From positions 1 to 55,042 of the IMG/VR virus record IMGVR_UViG_3300044491_000241: a stretch of 55,042 nucleotides of DNA; one strand, 5' to 3'. Shown piece after piece: positions 16,528 to 50,155 of the stretch. Each line of letters begins with the position of its first letter. The stretch's first letter is position 1. Source of the DNA: a virus (lineage: Duplodnaviria > Caudoviricetes). The notes beneath the pieces were generated by a model. That model was not told where the DNA came from. It saw nothing but the letters and a program-made list of their open reading frames with translations, and searched no databases. The translations under genes were made by a program, and so were the position numbers.

Positions 16528-17256
16528 ATGGCAACTTACGTTACTCTTGTTAATGAGCTACTTCGTAGATTAAACGAGGTTACTCTTGATACGGCAGGTG
16601 ATGGCTTTGGGACAGTACGTAACGTACAAGCCTTGGCTAAAGATGCAATAAATAGTTCCATTAGAAATATCTTACAGACAGGCCAGGAGTGGCCTTTTCT
16701 TAAAACAACTTATACTCAAGAATTAACTGCAGGAACAAGACAGTACAGCTTTCCTGCAGACTTTTCTAGAGCAGACTGGCAAACTTTCTACATAAAGAAA
16801 CTTTCTTCTGCAGACAACACACCTATGTCTTTACACACTATTACTTATGACGAGTACATACAAAGGTACAGACACTACGATGATACTGGAGAGCAAACAG
16901 GTATTTCAGCCCCTACTCTTGTCTATCAAACTAATGAAGACAAGTTTGGTGTGACTCCTATTCCAGATCAAGCCTACGAGATTGAGTACGTGTACTGGTC
17001 TTTTCCTTCTGATCTTACATCATTTGATGATACAACAGTTGTTCCCGACAGATTTAAACACGTAATTATTGATGGCGCAATGATGTACCTTATGCGGTTC
17101 AGGTCTAATGAGCAGAGTGCTCAGATACATCAAGGCGTGTTTCAAGATGGTATTAAGTCTATGAGAAGAATACTTGTAGATGAACCTCTCCGTATTAGAT
17201 CTACAGTAGTGGATCGCGCTAACTCTTCTAATCAAGTGTTGGGTAGAGTAGTTTAA
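16528..17256 (+). CDS. Head-tail adaptor (tail tubular protein A-like)
   Basis: LVN.LL..LNE start and WPF motif; size and position. Confidence 0.75.
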   Translation: MATYVTLVNELLRRLNEVTLDTAGDGFGTVRNVQALAKDAINSSIRNILQTGQEWPFLKTTYTQELTAGTRQYSFPADFSRADWQTFYIKKLSSADNTPMSLHTITYDEYIQRYRHYDDTGEQTGISAPTLVYQTNEDKFGVTPIPDQAYEIEYVYWSFPSDLTSFDDTTVVPDRFKHVIIDGAMMYLMRFRSNEQSAQIHQGVFQDGIKSMRRILVDEPLRIRSTVVDRANSSNQVLGRVV

Positions 17257-18800: not shown

Positions 18801-21800
18801 ATGGCAGGTTATCAGAGAAAAAGTGCTGGGGATATTGTTGCGGGGGCGGTTGTTAAAGCTGCACCAGTAGACACAGAGTTTAATTGTCTAAGAGACGCAT
18901 TCAACGAATCCACAGGTCACAAACACGATGGATCTTCAACAGAAGGTGCTTACGTTCCTATTATCGCAGACTCAGACGCAAATAATAAAGTCTGTGTTGA
19001 TACATCAAATAATAGATTAAGCTTCTTTACAGAGGTTTCTTCTGCTGCGACTGAGCAAATGAGGGTTCAAGACGGAGCCATCGTACCTGTAACGGATGAT
19101 GACATTGACCTTGGTATTACAACTACAAACAGATTTAAAAATCTATTTCTATCAGGTAATGCTACGGTTGGAGGAACATCCACTGTAACAGGAAACAGTA
19201 CTTTTGCTGGTACTCTTGGAGTTACAGGTGTTGCTACTTTTTCTGATACAGTTTGTGTGCCAGCTTTTAAAGCTACAGGGACATCAACTCTAACTACTGT
19301 GGACATCAATGCAGGTAATATTGATGGCACTGTTATCGGTGCTTCTACTGCTGCTGCTGGCAGCTTTACTACAGTTAGTACGTCAGGACAGGGTACTTTT
19401 GCTACAGTCGATGTCAATGGCGGTACTATTGATGGTGTTATTATTGGCGGCACTACGCCAGGTCTTATAACTGGTACAACCATCACAGGTACTAGTCTTG
19501 TAGGTCCAGTTACAGGTAATGTCACAGGTAACATTACTGGTAACGTAACAGGTGACCTAACAGGTAATGTTGCAGGAAACGTAACAGGTGATGTCACTGG
19601 GGATCTCACAGGAAATGTTACAGGAGATGTAACAGGAGACCTGACTGGTAACGTTACAGGTAATGTAACTGGTAATGTAACTGGTGACTTGACAGGTGAC
19701 GTAACTGGAGATGTAACAGGTGATGTTACAGGCAATGTTACAGGAAACGTAACAGGGAATGTCACTGGTAACCTAACAGGAAATGTTACAGGTAACGTAA
19801 CTGGTGACTTAACTGGGGATGTTACTGGTGACTTAACTGGTAATGTTACTGGTGACTTAACTGGTGATGTCACAGGAGATGTTACTGGAGATCTGACTGG
19901 TAATGTTACTGGAAATGTTACAGGTGACGTAACTGGTGACGTAACTTCAACAGGAACGTCTACCTTTACAACCTTGCAGCTAACAGGGGATATGGATGCT
20001 AACAGTAATAAGATTACAAATTTAGCAGAGCCTGTTTCTGATTCTGATGCAGCCACAAAATTGTATGTAGATAATGCAGTTGAAGGTTTGGATGTAAAAG
20101 GTTCTGTTAGAGTTGCTACAACTGCAAACATTACTTTGAGTGGTACTCAAACTATTGATGGTATTGCTGTAGTTGCAGACAACAGAGTTCTTGTTAAAGA
20201 TCAAAGCACAGCTTCAGAGAATGGTGTGTACGTAGTTGCTGCAGGTGCTTGGTCTAGATCAGATGACGCAGATACTTTTGATAAACATGTAGGTGCTTTC
20301 TTCTTTGTCGAAGAAGGTACAACAAATGGTGACAATGGTTTTGTAGGCACTGCAGATTCTGGTGGTACTCTTGATACTACTGACATAACATTTGTACAAT
20401 TCTCAGGTGCAGGTCAGATTACAGCAGGTACTGGTCTTACTAAGTCTGGAAACACTATTAATGTTGTTACTGCTGACTCAGGGAGAATTGTAACAAATGC
20501 AGATAATATTGATCTTGCTACTACAGGTGTGAGTGCAGGAACTTATAAGTCTGTTACCACAGATGTTTATGGTCGTATTACAAGTGGTACAAATCCAACT
20601 ACTCTTTCTGGTTATGGTATTGCTGATGCCTATACAATTACATGCTTAGATACTTTACTTGATGCTAAGTTAGATGTAGCAGGAGATACAATGACTGGGA
20701 ACCTTTCAATGGGTTCTAACAAAGTCACATCTACTGCAACTCCAACAACTGATGATGACCTTACTCGTAAAGGTTACGTTGATAGTCAAGATGCTCTTAA
20801 GTTTAACTTAACTGGTGGGACTCTTACTGGTGATTTAACTCTTGGTAGTAATAAAGCCACATCTACAGCTACTCCTACAACAGATGATACTCTTACACGT
20901 AAGGGCTATGTTGATACTCAACGTGATACAAGACTAGCTTGTACAGGTGGGACTTTATCAGGAAGTGTAGAAACTACTTGTCCTATTATTTCTTGTTACA
21001 CACCTGCCAATGCATGTGACCTGACTAATAAGTGTTACGTTGATGGTATATTACAATCAGCTACTGCAGCCTGTACTTCTGCTGCTTGTGCATTAGCAAG
21101 TCAGACTGCTGCAGCAACCTCTGAAACAAATGCAAGTAACTCAGCTTCTGCTGCTGCTACTTCAGCCAATAATGCTGCTACATCTTATGACGATTTTGAT
21201 GATAGGTACCTTGGTGATAAGGCATCAAATCCCTCTGTTGATAACGATGGAGATGCCCTTCTGACAGGAGCAATCTACTGGAACTCAACAGACAATGCAC
21301 TAAAAATTTATACAGGTTCTGCATGGAACAGTGCAGCATTTACTCTTGGTGATGCTCTTACTGCTGTTTCTGAGGATACTTCTCCAACACTAGGTGGAAA
21401 CTTAGCAGGTAACTCTCAATGTATTACTGGTGTTGCAAACATTTGTGCTACTAACCTTTATGGCGCTGTAACAGGTAATGTGACAGGAAACGTAACTGGC
21501 AATGTTTCAGGTAATCTTACAGGTAATGTAACTTCTTCTGGCACAAGTTGTTTTGCTACAGTTTGTACAACTGGTAACAGTACTCTTGTAGGAAACCTTA
21601 CTGTTAATGGAAACACTACCCTAGGTAATGCAGCTAGTGACACTGTAACTCTTACAGCAGACGTTGCTTCTAATATTATTCCAAGTGCTGATAGCACTCA
21701 CAGCCTAGGTGACAGTTCTAACTACTGGTCACATGGATACATAGATGCTATCACAACAACAGGAGCAGTTGTAATTGGAGGAGATCTAACTGTTAATGGT

Positions 21801-22817
21801 ACAACCACTACTGTAGCTACGACAAACACAGTTGTATCAGATTCCTTGATAGAATTAGGAAATGGAACATCTGGTTCCCCATCTAATGACGCAGGTATTG
21901 TTATTGAACGTGGTAGCAGTGCCAACGCATTCATGGGTTTTGATGAGTCAGCAGACAAGTTTATTGTAGGTACAGGTACATTTACTGGTGCATCTACAGG
22001 AAACCTTTCTATTACAACAGGTACACTTGTAGCTAACGTAGAGGGTAATGTAACAGGAGATGTCACTGGTAATGCTGATACTGCAACAACACTAGAAACT
22101 GCACGTACAATAGGTGGTGTTTCTTTTAATGGTTCAGCTAACATAAACCTACCAGGTGTTAACACTGCAGGAAACCAGAACACATCTGGTAATGCAGCTA
22201 CAGCAACTGCTTGGGCTACAGCTAGAACACTTTGTATTTGTGGGGATGCTACAGGCTCTGCTTCTATTGATGGATCTGGTAATGTAAACTTGACGGTTGC
22301 AGTAGTGGATGATAGCCACAACCACACAGTAGCTAACGTTGATGGACTAGCTACCTGCTTATCTAATAAAGCTTCTACTACCTGTGCAGGTACTATTGTT
22401 ACCTGTTTAGCAGGTAAGGCAGCAATAGCTGGTGCAACTACTCAAAACTTTAGTGCGCTATGTGCAATTGGTGCAAATTGTATGATAGCCCCTGTTATTT
22501 GTGGTACGACCTGTGTCGTAGCACCTGACATCAATGCAACGTCTGACTGCAGATGCAAGAGTAACATTGTTACAGTTGAGAATGCTTACTGCAAGTTAGG
22601 TCAAATACGTGGGGTTAACTACAACTGGAAAGACTCAGGAAAATACACAATAGGTGTTATTGCACAAGAAGTAGAAGAAGTTCTTCCAGAACTTGTAACT
22701 ACAGATGACGATGGCATGAAGGCAGTAAACTATAACGGCATCGTAGGTGTTCTAGTTGAAACAGTGAAATGCCTTCAAAGCAAAGTAGAGGAACTAGAGA
22801 ATGGCTCTAAAGGTTAG
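18801..22817 (+). CDS. Long tail fibre with C-terminal peptidase S74 chaperone
   Basis: GHKHDG N-terminal anchor, TKxYVD repeats, xTG[ND] repeats, SDxRxKxNI...GVIAQEVE...VNY chaperone; about 28 Cys. Confidence 0.9.
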   Translation: MAGYQRKSAGDIVAGAVVKAAPVDTEFNCLRDAFNESTGHKHDGSSTEGAYVPIIADSDANNKVCVDTSNNRLSFFTEVSSAATEQMRVQDGAIVPVTDDDIDLGITTTNRFKNLFLSGNATVGGTSTVTGNSTFAGTLGVTGVATFSDTVCVPAFKATGTSTLTTVDINAGNIDGTVIGASTAAAGSFTTVSTSGQGTFATVDVNGGTIDGVIIGGTTPGLITGTTITGTSLVGPVTGNVTGNITGNVTGDLTGNVAGNVTGDVTGDLTGNVTGDVTGDLTGNVTGNVTGNVTGDLTGDVTGDVTGDVTGNVTGNVTGNVTGNLTGNVTGNVTGDLTGDVTGDLTGNVTGDLTGDVTGDVTGDLTGNVTGNVTGDVTGDVTSTGTSTFTTLQLTGDMDANSNKITNLAEPVSDSDAATKLYVDNAVEGLDVKGSVRVATTANITLSGTQTIDGIAVVADNRVLVKDQSTASENGVYVVAAGAWSRSDDADTFDKHVGAFFFVEEGTTNGDNGFVGTADSGGTLDTTDITFVQFSGAGQITAGTGLTKSGNTINVVTADSGRIVTNADNIDLATTGVSAGTYKSVTTDVYGRITSGTNPTTLSGYGIADAYTITCLDTLLDAKLDVAGDTMTGNLSMGSNKVTSTATPTTDDDLTRKGYVDSQDALKFNLTGGTLTGDLTLGSNKATSTATPTTDDTLTRKGYVDTQRDTRLACTGGTLSGSVETTCPIISCYTPANACDLTNKCYVDGILQSATAACTSAACALASQTAAATSETNASNSASAAATSANNAATSYDDFDDRYLGDKASNPSVDNDGDALLTGAIYWNSTDNALKIYTGSAWNSAAFTLGDALTAVSEDTSPTLGGNLAGNSQCITGVANICATNLYGAVTGNVTGNVTGNVSGNLTGNVTSSGTSCFATVCTTGNSTLVGNLTVNGNTTLGNAASDTVTLTADVASNIIPSADSTHSLGDSSNYWSHGYIDAITTTGAVVIGGDLTVNGTTTTVATTNTVVSDSLIELGNGTSGSPSNDAGIVIERGSSANAFMGFDESADKFIVGTGTFTGASTGNLSITTGTLVANVEGNVTGDVTGNADTATTLETARTIGGVSFNGSANINLPGVNTAGNQNTSGNAATATAWATARTLCICGDATGSASIDGSGNVNLTVAVVDDSHNHTVANVDGLATCLSNKASTTCAGTIVTCLAGKAAIAGATTQNFSALCAIGANCMIAPVICGTTCVVAPDINATSDCRCKSNIVTVENAYCKLGQIRGVNYNWKDSGKYTIGVIAQEVEEVLPELVTTDDDGMKAVNYNGIVGVLVETVKCLQSKVEELENGSKG
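19509..19940 (+). repeat. 36 tandem [VLI][TA]G[ND] tetrapeptide repeats
   Basis: Counted from the translation; codons vary between units. Confidence 0.9.
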
Positions 22818-23016
22818 TGGCACAGACGTAATAGACAATAGCAAGAATATACCATCAGGTACTCCATCAGTACAGGGTACTATAGTTACTGCTACAGTTC
22901 TTACGGCACCTTCAGGTAACACTGCAGGTAGACCTGCTTCCCCAAACACAGGCCACATCTACTTCGATACAGACGAAGGTAAGTTATTAGCTTACAACGG
23001 AACTGAATGGGCTTAA
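22801..23016 (+). CDS. Small tail-fibre-associated protein, paralogous to the N-terminus of the next gene
   Basis: PSG.TA.RP.SP.TG.IYFDTDE..L.AY.G..W is shared with the 23047 ORF. Confidence 0.75.
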   Translation: MALKVSGTDVIDNSKNIPSGTPSVQGTIVTATVLTAPSGNTAGRPASPNTGHIYFDTDEGKLLAYNGTEWA

Positions 23017-23046: not shown

Positions 23047-24531
23047 ATGGCGTATAAGATTAATGGCACTACGGTTGTCGATAACAGCAGGAACGTATGT
23101 GCCTGTTGTGTTACCTCGTGTTGTATTACAGCTAGTTCTAGGATGGATGTACCATCAGGCGATACAGCCAGTAGACCAGGATCTCCTGCTACTGGTTCTA
23201 TTTATTTTGATACAGATGAAACTTCACTTGTAGCCTATGATGGTTCAGCTTGGGCTTCTGTAGGTGGTGGTGGATATCCTCAAATAGCTGCTCATTGCAA
23301 TGCTGTACCTACTATAAATGGTACAATTCAGGATAGGCAAGTAAAAGTACCAGTCTCTTTTAATAATATGGTCCACAGTATAAATGGTTCTTACAAAGCA
23401 GGTAATCCCTACAACAATTCTCTTTTTGTAGGTCTGAAAACAACAGGTACTACTCTAGAACTATGTAACGTCAGTGGCGGTGGTACTAGCACACTAGGTG
23501 CTTGGTTCACAGGAGGTAGTTTTGTATCCCCAGATAAAAATTTCTATTCTTTTAGTACTGGGGGTGAAAGTAATTTCTGTGTCTGCGGTAAAAGTTTTGG
23601 ATTCTCACCAGAAAAGATTTACCAGATGTCTTCCTGTAACAGGTCCACAAGTGTAGCTGGTACTATTATGACCCTAGGGGCTTATTCAGGTAACACCAAA
23701 ATATTTGGGATTCATGCGTCTGGGCATTTTGGTATGTGGTGTTGTACTGGCACTTTAATATGTATGGGTCGAATATGTCAGAACAATCAATCTTTTGCTA
23801 ATGCCTATGGTTTATTTACAACGTGTTCTGGTGATATTGGCCTGTTCCTTTGTAACGGTAAATTTATTGTTCATTTAGATGTTGATACTTTATCTATTCA
23901 ATGTCAGTTTTGCTACACCATTACAGAGCCTACAAAGATGGATGGGCAAGGTGGAGCACCAAGAGAAACAACGACTGCAGTTGGATTTCCTGGTTGCTGT
24001 AAGTACGGGTACGTTTGGGATAAAGTCAATTGTTGTATGTACAATATTATTTCTAGCAACGGCTCAAATCAGTTTGAAACCAAGCCAACTTGGATGTCTG
24101 TGAATGACAGTCTTTACTTTAAAACCTTTGGGTGCTACGGGGGTGGAAAATGTTGTACTAAACTAGAAAGGGTTAACGCAAATGGCACTAGAGACTGTTA
24201 TATAAGTGTTTGCGGTGGACTGAGTTATTTTTGGACCACTGATTTTGATACGTATATTGCTAATAATTTAGGTGAAAAGTTAATAAGTGTTCCTGGCACT
24301 GCCTGTGATAATGGGATATTTCCAGCATACGCCGTTAACGTAGACGTTAGTGTTAGTCATAGTGCGTGGAAAAGTGGAGTTTTAAGCTGTATTTTTCCTT
24401 CTGGTGGTGCCATGTCTTGCACAGCATCACCTGCTGCTAGTCAAGGCACACACAGTATTTACGTTGTGCAACTTAACTGTACCTACTGTATACAATCTTG
24501 TCTTTGTGTAACGGATGTTGTACGGACTTAA
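23047..24531 (+). CDS. Cys-rich tail fibre/receptor-binding protein
   Basis: GGAG RBS; MAYKINGTTVVDNSRN docking N-terminus; about 34 Cys in 494 aa. Confidence 0.75.
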   Translation: MAYKINGTTVVDNSRNVCACCVTSCCITASSRMDVPSGDTASRPGSPATGSIYFDTDETSLVAYDGSAWASVGGGGYPQIAAHCNAVPTINGTIQDRQVKVPVSFNNMVHSINGSYKAGNPYNNSLFVGLKTTGTTLELCNVSGGGTSTLGAWFTGGSFVSPDKNFYSFSTGGESNFCVCGKSFGFSPEKIYQMSSCNRSTSVAGTIMTLGAYSGNTKIFGIHASGHFGMWCCTGTLICMGRICQNNQSFANAYGLFTTCSGDIGLFLCNGKFIVHLDVDTLSIQCQFCYTITEPTKMDGQGGAPRETTTAVGFPGCCKYGYVWDKVNCCMYNIISSNGSNQFETKPTWMSVNDSLYFKTFGCYGGGKCCTKLERVNANGTRDCYISVCGGLSYFWTTDFDTYIANNLGEKLISVPGTACDNGIFPAYAVNVDVSVSHSAWKSGVLSCIFPSGGAMSCTASPAASQGTHSIYVVQLNCTYCIQSCLCVTDVVRT

Positions 24532-24630: not shown

Positions 24631-25557
24631 ATGAAAACTGTCTTTATGATTGACGGTGGTGCGGGGAGAGCTATTGCAGCAATTCCTGCTCTCATCAAGT
24701 ACAGTAAGAGTAATCCTGACTTTAGGGTTATAGTACATGGTTGGGATACTTTGTACTGGGGTATTCCTGAGCTTCATGACAAGGTGTTTAACCCAGACCA
24801 GAAGGGTGCCTTTGAGCAGTTTTTTATGGATGCTGATATAGTTCTTTCCCCAGAACCTTACAGAGTACCTGGGTACTACAGACAAGAAAAGTCTTTGTCA
24901 GAGGCCTTTGACTACTTGATTAACGAAACAGACGATCACTCTGACCTTGTTGCTCCTATGCTTAAAACAAATAGAAACGAGGAGTTACAAGCTGCTAACT
25001 TTATGCAGCAAGTTAGGCAGCAGCAACAGAAGCAGAAGACTATTGTTATACAGCCCTTTGGTCGATCAATAGAAAAGCCACAAGAGGGTGTTCTACTAGA
25101 CCAGTCTTCTCGTTCTATTAATCCTGATACGTATATCAAACTGGTAAAGAAGTTAGCTACTAAATACAACCTAGTGTTGTTTGCAGAGAAGGCCTTCTGG
25201 ATGGAAGAAGATACGTACACAATGAAGCCTGAGGCTGACTTGCGTATGTGGACTGCCTTTATTGATGCAGCAGACTATTTCATTGGTTGTGACTCTGTTG
25301 GTCAACATATGGCTCGTGCTATGAATAAACCTGGGACTGTTGTCATTGGTTCTACCTTTGCTATCAACACTTCCTATCCTAATTACTTTAACATTATTGA
25401 AAGGGATGTTCAGAAGAAATACTCACCTATTCGTATCTCAGGTCTTGAGTCTCACTTGGCAGATAGAGCTAATGAAGCTACTGTTGAGTTCACAGACGAA
25501 GAGATCAACAAGATGTACGAGTCTATTGTAAAAGACATTGAAAAGAAGGTGAAGTAA
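24631..25557 (+). CDS. GT9-like (heptosyltransferase-fold) glycosyltransferase
   Basis: N-terminal GGAGR...IPAL (family G.GD...P.L); C-terminal ADYFIGCDSVGQHMARAMNKP matching G.DSG..H.A.A...P. Confidence 0.75.
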   Translation: MKTVFMIDGGAGRAIAAIPALIKYSKSNPDFRVIVHGWDTLYWGIPELHDKVFNPDQKGAFEQFFMDADIVLSPEPYRVPGYYRQEKSLSEAFDYLINETDDHSDLVAPMLKTNRNEELQAANFMQQVRQQQQKQKTIVIQPFGRSIEKPQEGVLLDQSSRSINPDTYIKLVKKLATKYNLVLFAEKAFWMEEDTYTMKPEADLRMWTAFIDAADYFIGCDSVGQHMARAMNKPGTVVIGSTFAINTSYPNYFNIIERDVQKKYSPIRISGLESHLADRANEATVEFTDEEINKMYESIVKDIEKKVK

Positions 25558-25558
25558 T

Positions 25559-27274
25559 ATGAACATTCTAGGAATTAACCCAGGACATAACGGTGCAGCT
25601 GCTCTCCTTGTAGACGGTGAGCTTGAGTTCTACATTGAAGAAGAACGTCTGTCTCGTAGTAAGTATGACGGTAACCCCTTCATGGGTATTCTTGAGGGAT
25701 TAAAGTATGGTATTGACGTTCTGGTACTGGGTGGAACAAGCCCACAGCACCCTAGTCTGCCTTGGACAGGGGAAGATCCTTACAGTGCGTTAATCAGGAA
25801 GCACAACCCTAAAGTCCAAGTTATAAACGTAGGGCATGCACATCACCTTGGTCATGCTGCCTCATCCTTCTACAACTCAGGCTTTGAGGATGCTGCTGCT
25901 GTTATTGTGGACGGGTCTGGTACACGCCAAGAAATCCAAGTAAATGAAGAGGGTCAGAAGAACCCTGGTTTTGAGACTGAGACAATCTTCAACTGTGACT
26001 ACGAAGAGGGTATCAAGCCAGTGTTTCAGTCCTTCGGTGGTAATGCTGATACACAACGTGTAGTAGGGGATGCCATTGAGATGGACTCAGCTATTACCTT
26101 AGTTAAAGCATACGAGGCTGTATCTGAGTACTTAGGCTTTGGGTTCATCGAAGCAGGTAAGACTATGGGTCTTGCACCTTACGGTAAAAACGATGATCTT
26201 ATCCCTTCTCTTTTCTACGGTGGGCGTGGTAACAAGAACGTCTTTGTTCCTAACTATCCTGCTGGTGCTCATATTGACCACACACGTCACCCATACCTGA
26301 CACTGAAGCAAGACCCACGTACTTGGCACAATGACCCTTCTAAAGTAACAGATGCTGCCAAGAACCTAGCATGGGCTGTCCAGGATGAGACACAACGTCT
26401 TGTTGGTGACCTGATTGAGAAGGCTGTTAAGCTTACAGGCAAGAAGAACATCGTTATTGCTGGTGGCTATGGACTCAACTGTGTAGCCAATTACTACTAC
26501 CAGAAACGGTTCCCTGACCTGAACATCTATATAGATCCCATCTCACACGATGGTGGTACTGCACTGGGTCTAGCACAGTTGGTTCACTACACAGAGACTA
26601 AGGACAAGACTATTCGTCCACTAAAGACCCTGTACCTTGGACCTGAACGTGAGGAGTCATACGACTTCGGTGATATCAAAACAACAGACGTAACACCAGA
26701 AGACATTGCTGCTCTTCTCGTTGATCGTAAGATTGTTACTATGTTCCAAGGTCGATCAGAGGCTGGTCCTCGTGCTCTAGGTAATCGTTCTATCTTGTAC
26801 GATCCCACTGACCCTAAGGGTAAGGATTACGTCAACAAGGTAAAAGGTAGAGAGTGGTTTCGTCCCTTTGCTGGTTCTATGTTGCAGGAGGATTTTGAGG
26901 AATGGTTCGAGACATACGGAATGAAAGAGTCTCCCTTCATGATGTATGCAATGGACTTCAAGCTGGCTAAACATGGTGAAGTTCCTGCTATCACACACGT
27001 AGACGGTACTTGCCGTATTCAGACTGTGACAAAAGAACAGAACCCTGTGTACTACAGCCTGATCAAAGTCTTCAAAGAGAAGACTGGTGTACCTATAGTG
27101 TTCAACACTAGCTTCAACCTTGCAGGTGAGCCTCTCGTTGAGACCATTGCGGATGCTGTACATACAATCAAGAACTCAGACCTTGAGTACCTGTACGTAC
27201 CAGAAGTAGGGAAGTTGTTGCACTACCCCTACAACGATAAGGAAGTAGAGATAGTTGAGGAGAAAGCTGCTTAA
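25559..27274 (+). CDS. Carbamoyltransferase, NodU/CmcH/TobZ family
   Basis: ILGIN.GH...EEERLSR.K, HH.GHA, VDG.G, GK.MGLAPYG, GG..LNC.AN, GPRALGNRS, RE.FRPFA, HVDGT.R.QTV, NTSFN..GEP. Confidence 0.95.
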   Translation: MNILGINPGHNGAAALLVDGELEFYIEEERLSRSKYDGNPFMGILEGLKYGIDVLVLGGTSPQHPSLPWTGEDPYSALIRKHNPKVQVINVGHAHHLGHAASSFYNSGFEDAAAVIVDGSGTRQEIQVNEEGQKNPGFETETIFNCDYEEGIKPVFQSFGGNADTQRVVGDAIEMDSAITLVKAYEAVSEYLGFGFIEAGKTMGLAPYGKNDDLIPSLFYGGRGNKNVFVPNYPAGAHIDHTRHPYLTLKQDPRTWHNDPSKVTDAAKNLAWAVQDETQRLVGDLIEKAVKLTGKKNIVIAGGYGLNCVANYYYQKRFPDLNIYIDPISHDGGTALGLAQLVHYTETKDKTIRPLKTLYLGPEREESYDFGDIKTTDVTPEDIAALLVDRKIVTMFQGRSEAGPRALGNRSILYDPTDPKGKDYVNKVKGREWFRPFAGSMLQEDFEEWFETYGMKESPFMMYAMDFKLAKHGEVPAITHVDGTCRIQTVTKEQNPVYYSLIKVFKEKTGVPIVFNTSFNLAGEPLVETIADAVHTIKNSDLEYLYVPEVGKLLHYPYNDKEVEIVEEKAA

Positions 27275-27918
27275 GGTAGCTTCTCAACAAAGCTAAGAAG
27301 GTTGTCGAAGACCTTTGTCTTCTTTCTTAACTTCTCCTTAGAGAACTTTGATAACTCTTCTTCAGTAACCACGCCATGTCCTGTACGCACTAGGATCGGG
27401 GTGGCACCAATTCTTTCAGCAGCTTTGAGGTCAGACATCTTGTCCCCTACATAGAAACCACCCTGTTTAAAACGGGCCTTTCCCTCAAAGATTTCTTTCT
27501 CTGCTCTTTGAAACATACCAATATTAGGTTTGGCATATATATCTTCTTTTAAGGAGGACTCAGAATAAAAGAGGCCATCAATCGTGTATATACCAGCCCT
27601 GCCAAATATCTCAAACATACGTTGATGCACAGATTCTACCTGCTCATGGGTTTGTAACCCCTTAATAATACCACCTTGGTTAGTAAGTATAACTACTTTG
27701 TACCCTTTAATACGTAGCTTATGAATGGCTGCTAAAGACTCAGGTATAATTTCAAAGTCTTCGGGGTCTGTGATGTAGTGTCCTTTGTCTACGTTGATAA
27801 CACCGTCACGATCTAACCCTACAATAGCTTTAGGAAAGACTGTAGGCCAATCTGGTGGTAACTCCTGCTGAGGTTGTTGACTTGGTTCTTGTGTGATAAT
27901 ATGCTTGAATCTAGACAT
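27271..27918 (-). CDS. gmhB: D,D-heptose 1,7-bisphosphate phosphatase (HAD family)
   Basis: LDRDGVIN, TNQGGI, KPNIGM, VGDKMSDLKAA, LVRTGHG motifs. Confidence 0.9.
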   Translation of the reverse strand: MSRFKHIITQEPSQQPQQELPPDWPTVFPKAIVGLDRDGVINVDKGHYITDPEDFEIIPESLAAIHKLRIKGYKVVILTNQGGIIKGLQTHEQVESVHQRMFEIFGRAGIYTIDGLFYSESSLKEDIYAKPNIGMFQRAEKEIFEGKARFKQGGFYVGDKMSDLKAAERIGATPILVRTGHGVVTEEELSKFSKEKLRKKTKVFDNLLSFVEKLP

Positions 27919-27935: not shown

Positions 27936-28337
27936 ATGAAGAAAGTTTTTGTTAACGGTGCATTCGATGTGTTGCACTCTGGTCACCTAGATCTTCTTGA
28001 GTTTGCAGAGATGTTAGGCGGTCATTTGCTAGTAGCTATTGACACAGATAGGCGTATTGAGTATAACAAGGGTATCGGGAGACCTTTTAATTCTTTGTCA
28101 ATACGTAAACATATAATGTCTATGTTAAAGCCTGTCAATAGTGTCAAAGTATTTGATACAGACGAGGACTTAGTAGGTATTATAAAAGATTACCAGCCTG
28201 ACGTAATGGTAAAAGGATCTGACTGGAAGGGAAAGACAATACTTGGGGAGGAGTACTGCAAAGAAATAGTATTCTACGAGAGAACCAATGGTCAGTCCAC
28301 AACAAAAACAATTCAAGATTTTATTGATAGGCGATAG
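27936..28337 (+). CDS. hldC: Heptose-1-phosphate nucleotidyltransferase (RfaE domain II/HldC)
   Basis: NG.FDVLH.GH, KG..RP, PDV.VKG.DW, STT motifs. Confidence 0.85.
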   Translation: MKKVFVNGAFDVLHSGHLDLLEFAEMLGGHLLVAIDTDRRIEYNKGIGRPFNSLSIRKHIMSMLKPVNSVKVFDTDEDLVGIIKDYQPDVMVKGSDWKGKTILGEEYCKEIVFYERTNGQSTTKTIQDFIDRR

Positions 28338-29043
28338 TTGCTACGATGATTACCACTACGGCAGCATAAACAGAATAAGCCCAGAAGCTCCTGTCCCTGT
28401 CTTAGATATGGATAGAGTTGTTACAAAAAAGGGCATGACTTTTAATGTCTTTAATAACGTACTTGCTCTTGGTGCAGAAGCTCACATCATAACAGAGTTC
28501 AGTGAAAGAAAACACAGGTATCTTGACAGTAAGACTGGTCAGCAACTCCTTAGAGTAGACGAGAAGATTGATAAGAAGATTGTTGATACGGCAGAGGAAA
28601 ACCTTAACGATTACGATGTAGTCATTGTCTCAGACTATAACAAGGGTTTCTTCAACGAAGATGACATCACTGAAATTATAAGTAAGTATGATGGTCCCAT
28701 TTTTGTTGATACTAAGAAGAGAGATCTATCTATCTTTGATGGATGCTTTGTTAAGATTAATCAGTATGAGTACGAAGCCTCTGAAAGGCTGACAGAAGAA
28801 CTCATAGTCACCTACGGCTCAAAGAAAGTCGAGTACAAAAACAAGACCTACACCCCTCCTAAAGTGGGAGCCTACGATGTGTGTGGAGCAGGTGATACAT
28901 TTTTAGCTGCTCTTGCCTATAAGTACTGTGAAGAATATAATATGGATGAAGCTATAAAGTTTGCAATGGTTGCTGCTTCACTTACAGTACAACACATAGG
29001 TGTGTATGCACCCACACTAGAGGAAATACAAAATGCGGCTTGA
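28288..29043 (+). CDS. hldA: Heptose-7-phosphate kinase (RfaE domain I/HldA, PfkB family)
   Basis: IGD...D.Y..G...RISPEAPVPV, QQLLRVD, SDYNKG, DVCGAGDT. Confidence 0.9.
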   Translation: MVSPQQKQFKILLIGDSCYDDYHYGSINRISPEAPVPVLDMDRVVTKKGMTFNVFNNVLALGAEAHIITEFSERKHRYLDSKTGQQLLRVDEKIDKKIVDTAEENLNDYDVVIVSDYNKGFFNEDDITEIISKYDGPIFVDTKKRDLSIFDGCFVKINQYEYEASERLTEELIVTYGSKKVEYKNKTYTPPKVGAYDVCGAGDTFLAALAYKYCEEYNMDEAIKFAMVAASLTVQHIGVYAPTLEEIQNAA

Positions 29044-29386
29044 GGGCGTAGTGGAAAAGGGTTGGGGGTCTGAGTTGATCTGGGCAACCAACGACAAGTA
29101 TTGCGGTAAGTTCATGAACTTTAAGCAGGGTGCTAAGTTCTCAATGCACTTCCACAGAGAGAAAGATGAGACTTGGTTTGTTCTTACTGGTAAGTTCTTA
29201 GTAACTTGGATTGATACTGATGATGCAAGTGAGCACGTAGAAGAGCTTAACGAGGGTGACACTTGGCATAACCCACCTCTGGTTCCACACCGCATTACCT
29301 GCCTAGAAGAAGGAGTAGTTGTTGAAGTATCTACACCAGACTCTGTTGAGGATAACTATCGTGTAGCTAAGGGCGACAGCCAATAA
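29033..29386 (+). CDS. Cupin (sugar isomerase/epimerase-like)
   Basis: KGWG.E, SMHFH..KDETW and P...HR...E.ST cupin motifs. Confidence 0.8.
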   Translation: MRLEGVVEKGWGSELIWATNDKYCGKFMNFKQGAKFSMHFHREKDETWFVLTGKFLVTWIDTDDASEHVEELNEGDTWHNPPLVPHRITCLEEGVVVEVSTPDSVEDNYRVAKGDSQ

Positions 29387-30156
29387 TGAAGATTTTAGTT
29401 ACTGGTGCAAGTGGGTTCATTGGTCAGAACATGGTCACTGGACTCAGAGAAGAGCACGAAGTTATACCTCATGAGTGGGGTCAGACGATCTCTAAGGTAA
29501 ATGAGGTAGATTGGGTTGTACACTTAGGTGCCATAAGTTCTACTGTAGAACAAAATATAAGTAAGATATATAAGCAAAACCTAGACTTCTCTATTAATCT
29601 CTATGAGGAGTGTATAAAGAACAACGTAAATTTTCAGTTTGCTAGTAGTGCTTCTGTGTACGGGTTGAAGTCATCCTTCAAGGAGAGTGATCCTCTTGAT
29701 CCCCAGAACCACTACGCTCGTAGCAAGGCGATGTTTGAGAAATACGTAGAGCTAAGAAAAGCTCCTATTATTACTCAGACGTTTCGATACTTCAACGTGT
29801 ATGGGCCACACGAAGACCACAAAGGCGGTCAGGCAAGCCCTCATACTCAATTTACTAAACAGGCTAAGGAGACTGGTCTTATAAAACTCTTTGAGGGATC
29901 AGAGAAATATAAGAGAGACTTCATAAACGTAGCTCAGATTGTAGACCACCACAAACGTTTCTTTTCTGTAGAGGAGTCAGGTGTCTGGAACATGGGTACG
30001 GGTGTAGCTAAAAGCTTTTATGACGTGGCTAAAGAGATAGCCCGATACCATGCAGCTAAACTAGAGTACATCAAAATGCCACAGGTCTTAAAAAATAACT
30101 ACCAAGAATTTACACAAGCAAACACGTATAAGCTTCGTAAGACTTTATTGCTATAA
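29386..30156 (+). CDS. hldD: ADP-L-glycero-D-manno-heptose 6-epimerase-like SDR
   Basis: TGASGFIG, HLGAISST, ASSASVYG, YARSK, RYFNVYGP.E.HKG, RDFI. Confidence 0.85.
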   Translation: MKILVTGASGFIGQNMVTGLREEHEVIPHEWGQTISKVNEVDWVVHLGAISSTVEQNISKIYKQNLDFSINLYEECIKNNVNFQFASSASVYGLKSSFKESDPLDPQNHYARSKAMFEKYVELRKAPIITQTFRYFNVYGPHEDHKGGQASPHTQFTKQAKETGLIKLFEGSEKYKRDFINVAQIVDHHKRFFSVEESGVWNMGTGVAKSFYDVAKEIARYHAAKLEYIKMPQVLKNNYQEFTQANTYKLRKTLLL

Positions 30157-30170
30157 GGTAACAGATAAAC

Positions 30171-33100
30171 ATGGCACTAATCGTAGAAAAAGAAAATCCA
30201 CCAGCAGGTACTAACTATAAAGTTGGTGATAATGCAGAGCTTGATGCAGCAATTCAGGCTGGTGAAGCTCCTGGTATCACTGTAGGGGCTGACGGATACT
30301 ATATTAAAGAAGACGGTGGTCGTATTGAGTCTGCGGGTGGTACAATTAAGGTTGTTGATCTATCGAGTGCTACTGCAGAGGATATGGCTAATATCGCCAA
30401 ACTTGCAGAAGCTCATTTCCTTGCACAGACTACGGGTGTTTCAGGCTCAGTTCTGAATGCTGCAAAAGAAGCCGTTGGTATTGACCCTAACGATTACTCA
30501 CAAGATGCCCTGTACTATAAACTCTTAGACGAGTCTGGGTATGACTCAGGTGACCCCAGTAAAACTTTTAACAAGAATGGGTACACAGGTACTGACCCTG
30601 CTGTAAATATTCTACGGGATCGTCTTGACCAACGGCCTACAGACGAAGAGTTAGAAGCTGCGGGACTAGACCCTTCAGAGTATACTGTAGTTAATAATAA
30701 CGCAGCTAACGCATTCTACCTAGAGCAGGAACTAACTAAGCAAGGTTTAGGTTACTCATCTACGAATGCTGTTAGAGCCTCTACCAGAGGGTATTTAGGT
30801 CGTGATAACGATACAATGCAGCAAGTCAGAGACTCTCAAGATGCTTTGATGCTTAAGACAAAAGGTGAAGGTAACTTCAGAACGTCTGACAAAGAGTTAG
30901 ATATGCTTGAGTGGGATCTTATTAAGAAGAAGAAAACTGGAGTAGACACTACAGGAGGAACGACGGCTACAGTAACAGGGGCTAACTTTACTGGACAAGG
31001 GCAAGGCCAGATTACAGGTGGTGCAACAGGTACGATTACTCCTCCCTCCTATTCAAGTACACCCACAATTGGTGTTGTAACCCCTACCTATGGTGCAGGT
31101 CAGACAGGAACCAGTGAGACAACTATCCCCACCTATGAGGATGGTCTGAAGAAGCAAGCCACTCAGTTTCAGAATAGAGCCACATGCCAAGCAACCTTCT
31201 ATCAACCTCAAACACTAGCAGAGCAAGAAGCTGCAGGAACAGTATCAGCCTTTGAGAACGTACTGTACCGTAACAGGTTTGGTATGAGCATGTATGTGCA
31301 ACACATTAATGGTGTACCCTCTCAGCCGATCCCACCAGGATACTTTAAAGTACAGCAGTTCACTACTCAGGACCAAACACAAGGTGCTGCTGCAGGTGCT
31401 CAAGGCAAGAACCAAGGTGGTATGATCCAAGGGCTTATGGGTGGTGGTGTTGTATCACCCTTTACTGATGACGATAGAAAGAAGTTCAGAATCTTCTACC
31501 CAAATGGGACTTACTCAAGTACATCTTATAACACAGAAGCACAAGCACAAGCTGCGATAGACCAACAAAACGCAGCAGCTGGTTGGAATGGCTCAGGAGG
31601 TTCTGGCTCAGGTTCTAATCCGTATGCTGACGCTACGGTAAACCCAGCCTTAAATTATACGCCTGGTGGTCGAGTTACTGCTCAGTCTGACGGAACATTT
31701 GTACTTACTTACCCAGATGGTACTACGTCCCAAGCCTACAGTACTTCTGAAGAAGCACAGCAAGCCGATAACCTAGGAAAGGCTAGCAAAGGTATTCTAA
31801 CCTTTGATGAGTATAGTCAGTCTCAAGGGTACAACCCAGACCTACCTGGTTATGACCAAATTTCTGTGGAGAACCTGTACAACACATACGTTACAGACAC
31901 TTACTCTTCACAAGAGGCTGCAGATGCTGCAGCAAAAGCCCCACCTCCAGAGGCAGATGTAAATACAGATTTTGTTTCTGGGGAAACACAAGTATCCAAA
32001 GAAGACTTAGGTCAGTACCAAGCTAACCTAAATGCTCAAGTATACGCTAACCCTGCTGGTGCTGTAGCTGCTGCTCCTGTGTCATACATTGACCCTAATA
32101 CCCCAGGCTCAGTCATTGAATCTACTGCAGGTCGGGCTCAGGATACTGCACCTATGGTTGAGAGTGATCAAGTGGCTCAGATTAGTGCAGCTACTACAGC
32201 CGACACACCTCAGAAGATTGGTGCTTCTCAAGTAGACCCTAACTATGTATTCTCTGACGTACAGAACGCTACGGCAGGGATGACTGCAGCACAAAGTACT
32301 GGTCCTACCCAGACTATTGATGCCGCACAACAGACAGATACTTCACTCTCTGGACTCACATCTGCTACTGGTGACTCTGTAGATGTTACTGGTGCCCCAA
32401 CTCGTACACTAGAAACTATAGATGGTCAAAGTGAGTTAATTACTGGAACTGGGGTAGATCAGTCTAAAGTACTTAGTGCTTTTGGAGAGGGCGAGATTAA
32501 AGCTGCATCTGTTCAGGACGAACTAACTGGTCTGATGCGACAGTTTGAGGGTGGCGAAACACCAGCTTGGGCTGCAGGTTCTATGAGGTCAGCTATGGCT
32601 ACCCTTGCTGCTAGGGGGCTAGGTGCTTCAAGCATGGCAGGACAAGCAGTAATACAAGCTGCTATGGAATCCGCTCTTCCTATTGCCCAGATTGATGCTG
32701 GTAACAAGCAACAGATGGCTCTGTTTAAAGGGGAGCAGAGAGCTAAGTTCTTACAGATGGACTTCGATCAAGCATTCCAAGCTAAGGTTATGAATGCTGC
32801 GAAGGTATCTGAGATTGCTAACATGAACTTCACTGCTGAACAGCAGATTGCTTTGGAAAACTCTAGGGCTGCTAACACCATGCAGCTACAGAACCTCAAT
32901 AACTCTCAGGCGTTGATTATGGCTGAGGCTGCTGCCTTGTCACAGATGGATACGCAGAACCTGAACAACAGGCAACAGGCTAATGTTCAGAATGCTCAGA
33001 ACTTTTTGCAAATAGACATGGCTAACCTATCTAATGAGCAGCAGACTGCACTCTTCAAGCAACAGTCCCTAGTCAACAGTCTGCTTACAGATCAGGCTGC

Positions 33101-33632
33101 GGCTAATGCTGCACTACAGTTCAATGCTAGCTCTGAGAACCAGACCAACCAGTTCTTCGCAAATCTTTCTTCTTCAGTAAATCAGTTCAATTCTGCACAG
33201 ATGAATGCCATGAAGCAGTTTAACGCTGACGAAGTTAACTCTCTTCTAGAGTTTAACGCAGGTATGCAGAACCAAAGAGAAATGTTTAACGCACAGAACT
33301 ACCTTGTTGTAGCCCAAGCTAACGCTCAGTGGAGACAGAACTTATCTACTATTAACACTGCTACTGCTAACGAAAGCAATATGGCATACACTCAGGCTGT
33401 CAACGGTTTGACCATGACATCCTTAGATGAGATATGGCAGAGAGAAAGGGACATTCTTTCTATGGCCTTTCAAATATCAGAGAACAATGCTAACAGAGCT
33501 AATGAAATTGTACTTCAAAAACTTTCCGCTGATGCTGGAACAGATGCTGCAAAACTACAGGCAGAGATCGAGGCTTCTTCGGGGGCAGGGGATTTTGTAA
33601 AAGAAGTATTCTTAAAAATTATAGGAATTTAA
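30171..33632 (+). CDS. Large internal virion/ejection protein
   Basis: Gln/Asn/Ala helical C-terminal half; P.WA.G..R.A....RGL.ASSMAG motif; position. Confidence 0.65.
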   Translation: MALIVEKENPPAGTNYKVGDNAELDAAIQAGEAPGITVGADGYYIKEDGGRIESAGGTIKVVDLSSATAEDMANIAKLAEAHFLAQTTGVSGSVLNAAKEAVGIDPNDYSQDALYYKLLDESGYDSGDPSKTFNKNGYTGTDPAVNILRDRLDQRPTDEELEAAGLDPSEYTVVNNNAANAFYLEQELTKQGLGYSSTNAVRASTRGYLGRDNDTMQQVRDSQDALMLKTKGEGNFRTSDKELDMLEWDLIKKKKTGVDTTGGTTATVTGANFTGQGQGQITGGATGTITPPSYSSTPTIGVVTPTYGAGQTGTSETTIPTYEDGLKKQATQFQNRATCQATFYQPQTLAEQEAAGTVSAFENVLYRNRFGMSMYVQHINGVPSQPIPPGYFKVQQFTTQDQTQGAAAGAQGKNQGGMIQGLMGGGVVSPFTDDDRKKFRIFYPNGTYSSTSYNTEAQAQAAIDQQNAAAGWNGSGGSGSGSNPYADATVNPALNYTPGGRVTAQSDGTFVLTYPDGTTSQAYSTSEEAQQADNLGKASKGILTFDEYSQSQGYNPDLPGYDQISVENLYNTYVTDTYSSQEAADAAAKAPPPEADVNTDFVSGETQVSKEDLGQYQANLNAQVYANPAGAVAAAPVSYIDPNTPGSVIESTAGRAQDTAPMVESDQVAQISAATTADTPQKIGASQVDPNYVFSDVQNATAGMTAAQSTGPTQTIDAAQQTDTSLSGLTSATGDSVDVTGAPTRTLETIDGQSELITGTGVDQSKVLSAFGEGEIKAASVQDELTGLMRQFEGGETPAWAAGSMRSAMATLAARGLGASSMAGQAVIQAAMESALPIAQIDAGNKQQMALFKGEQRAKFLQMDFDQAFQAKVMNAAKVSEIANMNFTAEQQIALENSRAANTMQLQNLNNSQALIMAEAAALSQMDTQNLNNRQQANVQNAQNFLQIDMANLSNEQQTALFKQQSLVNSLLTDQAAANAALQFNASSENQTNQFFANLSSSVNQFNSAQMNAMKQFNADEVNSLLEFNAGMQNQREMFNAQNYLVVAQANAQWRQNLSTINTATANESNMAYTQAVNGLTMTSLDEIWQRERDILSMAFQISENNANRANEIVLQKLSADAGTDAAKLQAEIEASSGAGDFVKEVFLKIIGI

Positions 33633-50078: not shown

Positions 50079-50155
50079 TGGCCCACCCTGCAGGACTCGA
50101 ACCTGCAACCTACTGCTTAGAAGGCAGTTGCTCTATCCAGTTGAGCTAAGGATGG
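50079..50155 (-). tRNA. tRNA-Arg(UCU)
   Basis: Acceptor stem CCATCCT/AGGGTGG, D arm AGCTCAACTGGATAGAGC, anticodon arm ACTGC-CTTCTAA-GCAGT, TTCGAGT T-loop, encoded CCA. Confidence 0.95.

Follow-up and report, generated by a model that had tools for sequence, protein, structure and literature searches.

The closest described relatives of the enzyme considered here are the heptosyltransferases WaaC (HepI) and WaaF (HepII) of CAZy family GT9 (PDB 2H1F/2H1H/2GT1/6DFE and 1PSW). An aspartate, D13 of WaaC, is the proposed catalytic base, present in all heptosyltransferases I–IV, and the alanine substitutions D13A, K192A and D261A lower activity 4688-, 926- and 2027-fold, respectively, in the text of PMC5713226. 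Here, we analyze a 55,042-nt stretch of viral DNA (Duplodnaviria; Caudoviricetes; IMG/VR record IMGVR_UViG_3300044491_000241, positions 1 to 55,042), referred to over its whole length as the window, which encodes, at positions 24631–25557 on the plus strand, a 308-aa protein that is very probably a GT9-derived sugar transferase of the GT-B type (hereafter GT), with an arginine, R13, at the position of WaaC D13. GT is gained and lost together with cysteine-rich proteins of the tail fibre module in two unrelated phage groups, and its family is a genuine and conserved version of a known enzyme type that had not been remarked on before.

Several other known systems resemble parts of this arrangement. 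TibC/AAH enzymes (BAHT) possess a GT9-like GT-B core, transfer heptose from ADP-heptose to protein and hyper-glycosylate a repetitive surface protein, with an Asp base (D110), an N-terminal beta-barrel, a Cys4 iron-finger, a dodecameric assembly and O-links to Ser, as the text of PMC4358343 describes them. By this likeness, TibC/AAH may be taken as the nearest functional analogy to the role that we propose for GT. In contrast to TibC, GT has neither an iron finger nor an extra barrel, because it is only 308 aa long, has one Cys and begins immediately with the GT-B strand-loop-helix, and TibC was not among the PDB sequence matches of the GT family profile. Cysteine S-glycosylation is known in bacteria from the glycocin S-glycosyltransferases, such as SunS and ThuS, which place a sugar onto the Cys sulphur of a ribosomal peptide. 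Enzymes of the SunS/ThuS type belong to GT2 (GT-A fold), use UDP-hexoses and modify one or two Cys of a small peptide; to our knowledge, none of them is of the GT-B/GT9 type, uses heptose, acts on phage virion proteins or modifies tens of sites.

The gene that follows GT in the window encodes a protein with both Carbam_trans domains, as in TobZ, NodU, NovN and GdmN, which O-carbamoylate the hydroxyls of sugars or aglycones. A 7-O-carbamoyl-heptose occurs in the Pseudomonas lipopolysaccharide (LPS) core, and HypF, a distant carbamoyltransferase relative, S-carbamoylates a Cys of HypE. The same gene set as in the window makes up the ‘LPS gene clusters’ of cyanophages (T4-GC 302–308; P-SSM2, S-SSM7, S-SM2), in which the GT9-like gene corresponds to T4-GC 302, the carbamoyltransferase to 303, and the heptose genes to 304, 305, 307 and 308. 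The published account of these clusters, supplements aside, treats them only as LPS-related or as possible stuffer DNA and mentions no GGxGR motif and no link to Cys-rich proteins (PMC3037559).

A GT9-like protein with arginine at the position of WaaC D13

The GT ORF begins MKTVFMIDGGAGRAIAAIPALIKY, an opening also given as MKTVFMIDGGAGRAIAAIPAL, with which the DNA at 24631–24700 agrees. The sequence-only reading had described a GT9-like enzyme with an altered N-terminal loop and an intact donor side, and the loop DGGAGRAIAAIPAL and the C-terminal donor motif GCDSVGQHMARA are both found in the ORF list and in the DNA, the latter at residues 219–230, within YFIGCDSVGQHMARAMNKPG (residues 216–235). 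Our locus analyses covered the best 80 of the 593 IMG/VR relatives of GT which, together with five loci from phage records and the window’s own, provided 86 GT ORFs. The loop reads GGAGR in 81 of these, GGLGR in two, and GGIGR and GGFGR in one each, the remaining ORF being N-terminally truncated. Across 90 full-length relatives, aligned to produce the family profile A1, G9, G10 and G12 are at least 98% conserved, and position 13 is R in 84 sequences, K in three, and C, S or A in one each.

To place the family relative to known enzymes, A1 was aligned with a GT9 profile of 13 sequences, namely, E. coli WaaC, WaaF and WaaU, and 10 GT9 ORFs from five metagenome-assembled genomes (MAGs), which were chosen because a search for WaaC homologues returned only enterobacterial proteins with 83–96% identity. 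The resulting two-domain homology extends over about 240 columns (hhalign Prob 98.95%, E 9.5e-18, 237 columns), with residues 1–252 of the GT family aligned to 1–293 of WaaC across both Rossmann-like domains. The same N-terminal strand, G-loop and helix with an xxxPAL motif are present in both families, and R13 falls in the WaaC D13 column with a per-column confidence of 9. On the donor side, K192, D261 and H266 of WaaC are retained as R161, D221 and H226, with S222 aligned to T262; residue 161 is R in 88 and K in two of the 90 relatives, and D221 and H226 are each present in 89.

Narrower comparisons recovered the C-terminal (donor) domain only. This was the case for a smaller, six-row GT9 profile (95.2% probability) and for hhalign against single WaaC or WaaF sequences (67–87%), both with the R161/K192, D221/D261 and H226/H266 pairing kept, and for A1 against the PDB (WaaF, E 8.5e-4; WaaC, E 4.8e-3), where a sub-threshold N-terminal alignment already set GaGRvicaiPAL on SMGDVLHTLPAL. 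At the level of sequence profiles, then, R13 is the equivalent of WaaC D13, as had been suggested from the loop motif, and the GT9 relationship with an intact donor side is supported by the profile homology together with the R161, D221/S222 and H226 equivalences.

In the 13-sequence GT9 sample, the Asp site reads G-D in 11 sequences and Arg in none. The other two are Bdellovibrionales paralogues from one MAG (G005; L103 and L110), which read G-A and G-S and have no catalytic Asp, so that the phage family is not alone in having lost the base, but it is alone in having Arg there. GT differs from WaaC and WaaF in further respects: about 30 residues around WaaC positions 86–116 have no counterpart in its shorter N-terminal domain in the alignment, and it has a family-specific EPY motif and a C-terminal extension of about 55 aa.

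R13, E75 and R268 co-vary

The nearly invariant positions of A1 are G9, G10, G12, R13, E75, P76, Y77, E117, Q141, P142, G144, D157, R161, S162, R205, D221, S222, H226, G240, N246, Y249, R268 and N281. Three of these, R13, E75 and R268, occur together in 273 of 284 distinct family sequences of at least 270 aa, and none of the 284 has D, E or H at position 13. E75 is present in 85 of the 90 relatives (94%), and R268 lies, together with N281, in the C-terminal extension, which is specific to the family and located past the end of the GT9 alignment. None of the 84 sequences with R13 is without E75 or R268, whereas the six without R13 all have no R268 and five of them have no E75. The donor side is nevertheless retained in these six sequences, with R/K161, D221, S222 and H226 in all of them and D157 in five (Y in P0116). 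They are scattered on long branches of a quick maximum-likelihood tree of the 90 sequences, on which six changes are needed, and well-supported branches make at least three of these unavoidable.

The co-variation marks R13, E75 and R268 as a single functional unit, predicted to lie on the acceptor side. In GT-B enzymes, the C-terminal segment usually returns to the N-terminal domain, and the three residues may meet in space.

The GT family is almost entirely viral

GT matches phrog_8954 (‘unknown function’; E 4.5e-84), and its family comprises 371 representative clusters at 50% identity (E up to 0.001). The family is almost entirely viral: the Atlas clusters nearest to GT are 100% viral, and, among 185,579 species genomes, the family is found on only 14 contigs, every one of them from MAGs. 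Isolates that carry it are the T4-like cyanophages S-CAM1, S-CAM3, S-SSM7, S-SSM6a, Sf-FS3, P-SSM2 and P-SSM5 (23 records, 35–52% identity), in which the homologue, T4-GC 302, is labelled hypothetical. Compared with WaaC and WaaF, the family is virus-restricted and located in a tail fibre context rather than in an LPS core operon.

Standard family models place GT below their thresholds. Pfam GT9 (PF01075) matches residues 192–242 only, at 18.4 bits against a gathering cut-off of 22, and the NCBIfam models for heptosyltransferase I, heptosyltransferase III and RfaQ score 16–27 bits against cut-offs of 170–467; a phmmer search of the PDB with the single GT protein gave chance matches only. All glycosyltransferase matches of GT in Pfam and NCBIfam are to GT9, and a GT2 match, sought in Pfam, was not found. 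Some relatives do pass the PF01075 cut-off, among them the metagenomic protein P0146 at 22.7 bits. In P0146 (558 aa), a GT8 domain (E 3e-12) is naturally fused to a GT9-like GGxGR domain, which suggests that the GGxGR enzyme can work alongside a second glycosyltransferase.

Cysteine-rich fibre proteins often accompany GT

Two genes upstream of GT in the window encode proteins with many cysteines, as had been noted from the sequence alone. The proposed acceptor, a fibre-associated protein of 494 aa (23047–24531, plus strand), contains 34 Cys (6.9%, against a mean of 0.89% for 49 ORFs of the window), and the tail fibre protein of 1338 aa (18801–22817, plus strand; PHROG tail-fibre families, E down to 3e-42) contains 28, of which 25 lie past about residue 600 and 24 past about residue 700, as counted in 100-aa bins. 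GT is strongly linked to such neighbours in phage lineages unrelated to each other, among them close relatives of the window phage and cyanomyoviruses.

We grouped the 86 GT loci at a GT identity of at least 85% into 57 clusters and compared the ORFs on the two sides of GT in these dereplicated loci. Upstream, 41 of 321 ORFs contain at least 7% Cys, compared with 2 of 451 downstream (Fisher p ~2e-14, uncorrected for relatedness); with a threshold of at least 5%, the counts are 54 of 321 and 6 of 451. The frequency of Cys-rich ORFs peaks two to three genes upstream of GT. At least 3 kb of sequence upstream of GT was available for 47 clusters, of which 35 include an ORF with 5% Cys or more on that side, whereas the other 12 have none.

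As a control within the lineage of the window phage, we fetched 80 loci via a 514-aa tail protein encoded two genes upstream (72–87% identity), of which 24 had at least 6 kb downstream and were kept, and 56 were dropped as too short. An ORF with at least 8% Cys lies between the fibre and GT in 18 of 18 GT-positive relatives, whereas none of the six GT-negative relatives has an ORF with even 5% Cys; judged by gene architecture, the two sets represent about 13 and 5 distinct cases, respectively. The homologous fibre itself splits in the same manner, with 13–58 Cys in 17 of the 18 GT-positive loci (0 in the remaining one) and 0–1 Cys in all six GT-negative loci, where the proteins are 801–1502 aa long.

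The pattern is repeated in the Kyanoviridae. In the GT-positive phages P-SSM2, S-SSM7 and S-CAM3, 8 of 564 ORFs combine a length of at least 250 aa with at least 8% Cys, and all eight are located within about 4.1 kb upstream of GT, whereas the GT-negative P-RSM4, S-MbCM100 and P-RSM1 have none among 392. Homologues of the P-SSM2 Cys-rich protein are found in 11 phage records, every one from a phage that also carries GT. BLAST does not connect the Kyanoviridae group with any of the other fetched Cys-rich ORFs, and of three of its proteins scanned against Pfam Gly_rich_2, one is above the gathering cut-off, one below, and one has no match. Overall, 66 Cys-rich ORFs fall into 29 groups without BLAST links between them.

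The Cys-rich protein of the window is conserved only at its N-terminus. All 19 BLAST matches in the fetched loci (self excluded) are confined to residues 1–80, with 29–89% identity (81–89% for 17 of them); the matched proteins are 480–1188 aa long, and the 17 tallied close relatives have 9–12% Cys. Matches in a phage database are likewise limited to the N-terminus, and PHROG matches to residues ~26–110. Proteins of this modular kind (23047–24531; L006, L008, L020, L114, L117, L122, L165 and others) consist of an anchor of about 75 aa, with 81–89% identity, followed by non-matching C-terminal parts of 400–1100 aa. An anchor with exchanged C-terminal parts is typical of swapped receptor-binding modules, even though all of the relatives have 9–12% Cys. 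In the Atlas model of the Cys-rich protein (pLDDT 0.41), beta-propeller look-alikes with a TM score of about 0.5 provide only a lead.

Comparison of seven pairs of homologous Cys-rich proteins (45–65% identity) showed that 67–79% of the Cys positions are kept and 21–33% differ, a conservation about equal to that of Gly and Trp and above that of Ser/Thr (17–61%). As a means of telling disulfide sites from modification sites, this level of conservation is intermediate. The number of Cys is odd in 11 of 25 representative proteins. Ser (8.5%), Thr (7.7%) and Asn (6.6%) are likewise abundant in the Cys-rich proteins.

The sugar cassette and the phage genome

GT is followed by a carbamoyltransferase gene and by genes of the ADP-heptose pathway. 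The NodU/TobZ-type O-carbamoyltransferase (25559–27274, plus strand; 571 aa; Carbam_trans_C 4.4e-62, Carbam_trans_N 2.3e-22) begins 2 nt past the GT stop and matches TobZ (2.1e-52), 7xb6, NovN and GdmN in the PDB. Unlike the TobZ group, carbamoyltransferases of the window type are fixed beside a GT9-like gene in phages: the gene is next after GT in 46 of the 57 clusters and just before it in two more, so that it is adjacent in 48. ADP-heptose synthesis genes adjoin, as they do for WaaC and WaaF. In the window, these encode a GmhB-like D-glycero-D-manno-heptose 1,7-bisphosphate phosphatase (HAD-IIIA; 27271–27918, minus strand; NF006506, 3.2e-37), homologues of the C-terminal domain of HldE, a heptose 1-phosphate adenylyltransferase (27936–28337, plus strand; TIGR02199, 8.3e-28; phrog_7878), and of its N-terminal domain, a heptose 7-phosphate kinase of the PfkB family (28288–29043, plus strand; TIGR02198, 6.8e-42), and an HldD-like ADP-glycero-manno-heptose 6-epimerase (29386–30156, plus strand; TIGR02197, 5.1e-64). 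Of the 57 clusters, 35 contain one or more genes of the heptose pathway.

A search for gmhA in the window genome yielded no match, and the cyanophage genes labelled ‘phosphoheptose isomerase’ (106–114 aa; L001, 11870–12190; L003, 11970–12314) turn out to resemble small HAD phosphatases (TIGR01689, E 1e-8 to 4e-9); neither the window phage nor the cyanomyoviruses encode GmhA. A metal-type cupin of 117 aa (29033–29386, plus strand; Cupin_2, 1.6e-9; a weak MannoseP_isomer match, 3.5e-4; phrog_7851; PDB Mn-cupins, 1e-10) adjoins HldD in all four loci read that have both genes and is annotated in records as ‘cysteine dioxygenase’. This cupin may be a substitute for GmhA as a sedoheptulose-7-phosphate isomerase, or a sugar/heptose epimerase.

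Loci without heptose genes often have sulfotransferases, GT2-like genes or 2-oxoglutarate (2OG) oxygenases beside the GT–carbamoyltransferase pair. Such flanking genes are found at L062 (8266–9938 and 12624–13490), L047 (12639–14248) and L075 (12730–13899), and include one or two sulfotransferases, GT2-like genes and pairs of 2OG-Fe(II) oxygenases. Together, these carbamoyl, sulfate and GT2 functions are reminiscent of the enzymes that decorate Nod factors.

The window is a nearly complete phage genome (CheckV 98%), with genes including those for terminase, portal, major head protein, DNA polymerase, primase-helicase and ribonucleotide reductase, and a sole tRNA, tRNA-Arg(TCT) (50079–50155, minus strand). 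An SU10-type adaptor protein (16528–17253; PF24175, E 4.7e-24) points to a podovirus-like particle, and a megablast search with 12 kb around the GT gene found no close phage record. The GT cassette is on the strand of the structural genes, between the fibre and further large virion-type ORFs. Two of the latter, directly past the sugar genes (30171–33632, 1153 aa, and 35966–39472, 1168 aa), have no Pfam or PHROG family and contain one and no Cys, respectively. Between the fibre and the Cys-rich protein, a small ORF (22801–23016, plus strand; 71 aa, 0 Cys; PHROG virion structural/fibre-like matches at residues ~20–70) carries on its own the domain found at the N-terminus of the Cys-rich protein. 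Within the fibre, residues ~235–395 (window 19500–20000) form a long run of GNVTGD/GDLTGN hexapeptides with many N-x-T triplets; an antisense frame of 354 aa, open across these repeats, is probably a repeat artefact. Glycosylation of DNA was set aside, there being no base-hydroxymethylation gene among the Pfam, NCBIfam and PHROG matches of the scanned window ORFs, with many small ORFs unscanned.

A possible S-heptosyltransferase and its alternatives

From its sequence, GT appears to be a virus-specific, strongly diverged GT9-type GT-B enzyme that has kept the WaaC/WaaF donor side, while its acceptor side would have been rebuilt around R13, E75 and R268. ADP-heptose as the donor is suggested by the gene context, with GmhB, both HldE halves and HldD encoded directly downstream. 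On the simplest reading, the Cys-rich virion proteins are the acceptors, which we consider reasonably likely. Because it is the Cys content, and not the mere presence of these proteins, that tracks GT, the association would be best explained if Cys is the modified residue. We therefore propose that, in the reducing cytoplasm and ahead of virion assembly, GT would move heptose from ADP-heptose to the co-encoded Cys-rich fibre proteins, with cysteine thiolates as the likeliest acceptor atoms. With E75 holding it and R268 beside it, R13 would serve to stabilise an anionic nucleophile rather than to take a proton; an Arg that lowers the thiol pKa, in place of a proton-abstracting Asp, would fit thiolate chemistry. 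The neighbouring carbamoyltransferase would next O-carbamoylate the sugar. S-heptosylation followed by O-carbamoylation appears to be the single most likely mechanism, even if we put it forward tentatively, and linkage via the Cys sulphur, taken by itself, is possible rather than probable. The explanation as a whole, which joins a GT9-derived enzyme, Cys-rich fibre acceptors, and S-heptosylation with carbamoylation, is the best that we can offer, and it too is tentative. An S-heptosyltransferase had been suggested by the sequence-only reading; the equivalence of the Arg with D13 and the Cys link that it invoked are borne out, whereas the S-linkage and the protein acceptor are still proposals, given the GGAGR loci free of Cys-rich ORFs and the presence of E75.

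Several observations weigh against this proposal. The co-dependence of R13, E75 and R268 makes E75 available as a possible base, and this weakens the argument that the enzyme has none: nearly invariant and co-varying with R13, E75 could serve as general base in the conventional manner and yield an O-linked product, so that the idea that no other acidic residue supplies the base holds only in part. The 12 of 47 clusters that have no upstream Cys-rich ORF all still read GGAGR, which means that R13 is not tied to Cys-rich neighbours and that the expectation of such neighbours beside every GGxGR homologue is contradicted in part. In S-SSM7, which has three paralogous Cys-rich proteins, 91–98% of the Cys positions are kept in the two pairs scored, as expected of disulfide or metal sites. 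No sequon flanking Cys was found in the Cys-rich proteins, and CC and CxC are only 1.3–1.4 times as frequent as expected, with CxxC at expectation. Sulfotransferases, GT2-like genes and 2OG oxygenases are frequent at the loci without Cys-rich ORFs, and these neighbours, like the GT8 fusion, fit the extension of a glycan chain as well as the priming of a protein. The locus counts are not phylogenetically independent, and part of the link could result from a single swapped cassette being inherited as a unit. Finally, the literature searched offers no precedent for S-linked heptose and no heptosyltransferase with S-linkage; in the same search, supplementary virion proteomics tables not covered, there was no paper on the GT family, the GGxGR motif or heptose on phage virions.

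An alternative that retains the enzyme and its Cys-rich acceptors is an O-linkage to Ser/Thr, or an N-linkage, in which E75 would be the base, R13 and R268 would bind the donor diphosphate or an anionic group, and the cysteines would be structural, in disulfides or metal sites. In inverting GT-B fucosyltransferases, an Arg on the donor phosphate is paired with a Glu base. The near invariance of E75 (85 of 90) and its loss along with R13 suit this alternative, as do the conservation of the Cys positions in the S-SSM7 pairs and, overall, at the level of Gly and Trp, the Ser/Thr/Asn-rich composition of the Cys-rich proteins and the 12 GGAGR loci without such neighbours. Nevertheless, we regard it as somewhat unlikely: it does not account for Cys rather than Ser/Thr content tracking GT, with 0–1 Cys in the GT-negative fibres, for sequence-unrelated domains in two phage families that all have 8–12% Cys, or for the odd Cys counts in 11 of 25 proteins.

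The remaining alternatives dispense with the Cys-rich proteins as acceptors. The cassette could be an auxiliary ‘LPS’ module that remodels the envelope glycan of the host, for example, to block superinfection, with the Cys-rich proteins being mere linked neighbours in a hypervariable host-recognition region. This is the reading in the literature, where the text on cyanophage ‘LPS gene clusters’ considers their function unknown and possibly that of ‘stuffer DNA’ (Sullivan et al. 2010, PMC3037559), and O-chain modification by glycosyltransferases of the fibre region is proposed in the text of a pelagimyophage paper (PMC7029224). WaaC and WaaF, the closest characterised relatives, act on the LPS core, and the GT8 fusion and the sulfotransferase and GT2 neighbours in other loci are compatible with such a role. 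We nonetheless judge it unlikely, because GT and Cys-rich ORFs coincide perfectly in close relatives (18/18 versus 0/6), with the fibre Cys splitting likewise, GT is found beside Cys-rich proteins of an unrelated kind in Kyanoviridae as well, the cassette forms part of the structural block and shares its strand, and GT has lost the catalytic residue that LPS enzymes have on the acceptor side. Less likely still, GT could extend a phage-built glycan on another carrier (a chain begun by another glycosyltransferase, a lipid carrier or DNA), or it could be a non-catalytic binder of sugar nucleotides; R13 would in both cases recognise an anionic group of the acceptor (sulfate, carboxylate or phosphate). 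L062 and L047, which have neither heptose genes nor Cys-rich ORFs, pair GT with one or two sulfotransferases and GT2-like genes, the GT8 fusion points in the same direction, and two Arg with a Glu would make a common anionic-ligand site. However, the near invariance of the donor residues (D221 and H226 in 89 of 90, R161 in 88) argues for catalysis, DNA as the carrier is disfavoured by the lack of a base-hydroxymethylation gene among the family matches of the scanned ORFs (the many small ORFs aside), and the Cys link would be left unexplained.

Implications for phage biology

Whatever the acceptor atom, the GT family is an example of the well-studied GT9 scaffold in which the catalytic Asp has been lost and an Arg-Glu-Arg site acquired. 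In cyanophages, the heptose and carbamoyltransferase genes, described as ‘LPS genes’ or stuffer DNA since 2005–2010 without an assigned function, are now tied to specific co-encoded virion proteins, and fibre-tip glycosylation is a testable function for them; P-SSM2, S-SSM7 and S-CAM3 are cultured phages that carry the family. If the acceptor is Cys, the enzyme activity would be new, and so would this form of virion decoration. GT would then be the first S-heptosyltransferase, with an Arg-Glu-Arg thiolate site, and would place tens of S-linked, O-carbamoylated heptoses on hypervariable fibre-tip proteins with 8–12% Cys in marine and freshwater phages, a prospect that we entertain as possible while leaning against it. 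If true, such a ‘thio-mucin’ layer on the receptor-binding apparatus would explain the ‘LPS genes’ of P-SSM2 and S-SSM7, and it might bear on host range and on resistance to degradation, as well as on how ‘auxiliary metabolic genes’ in ocean viromes are interpreted.

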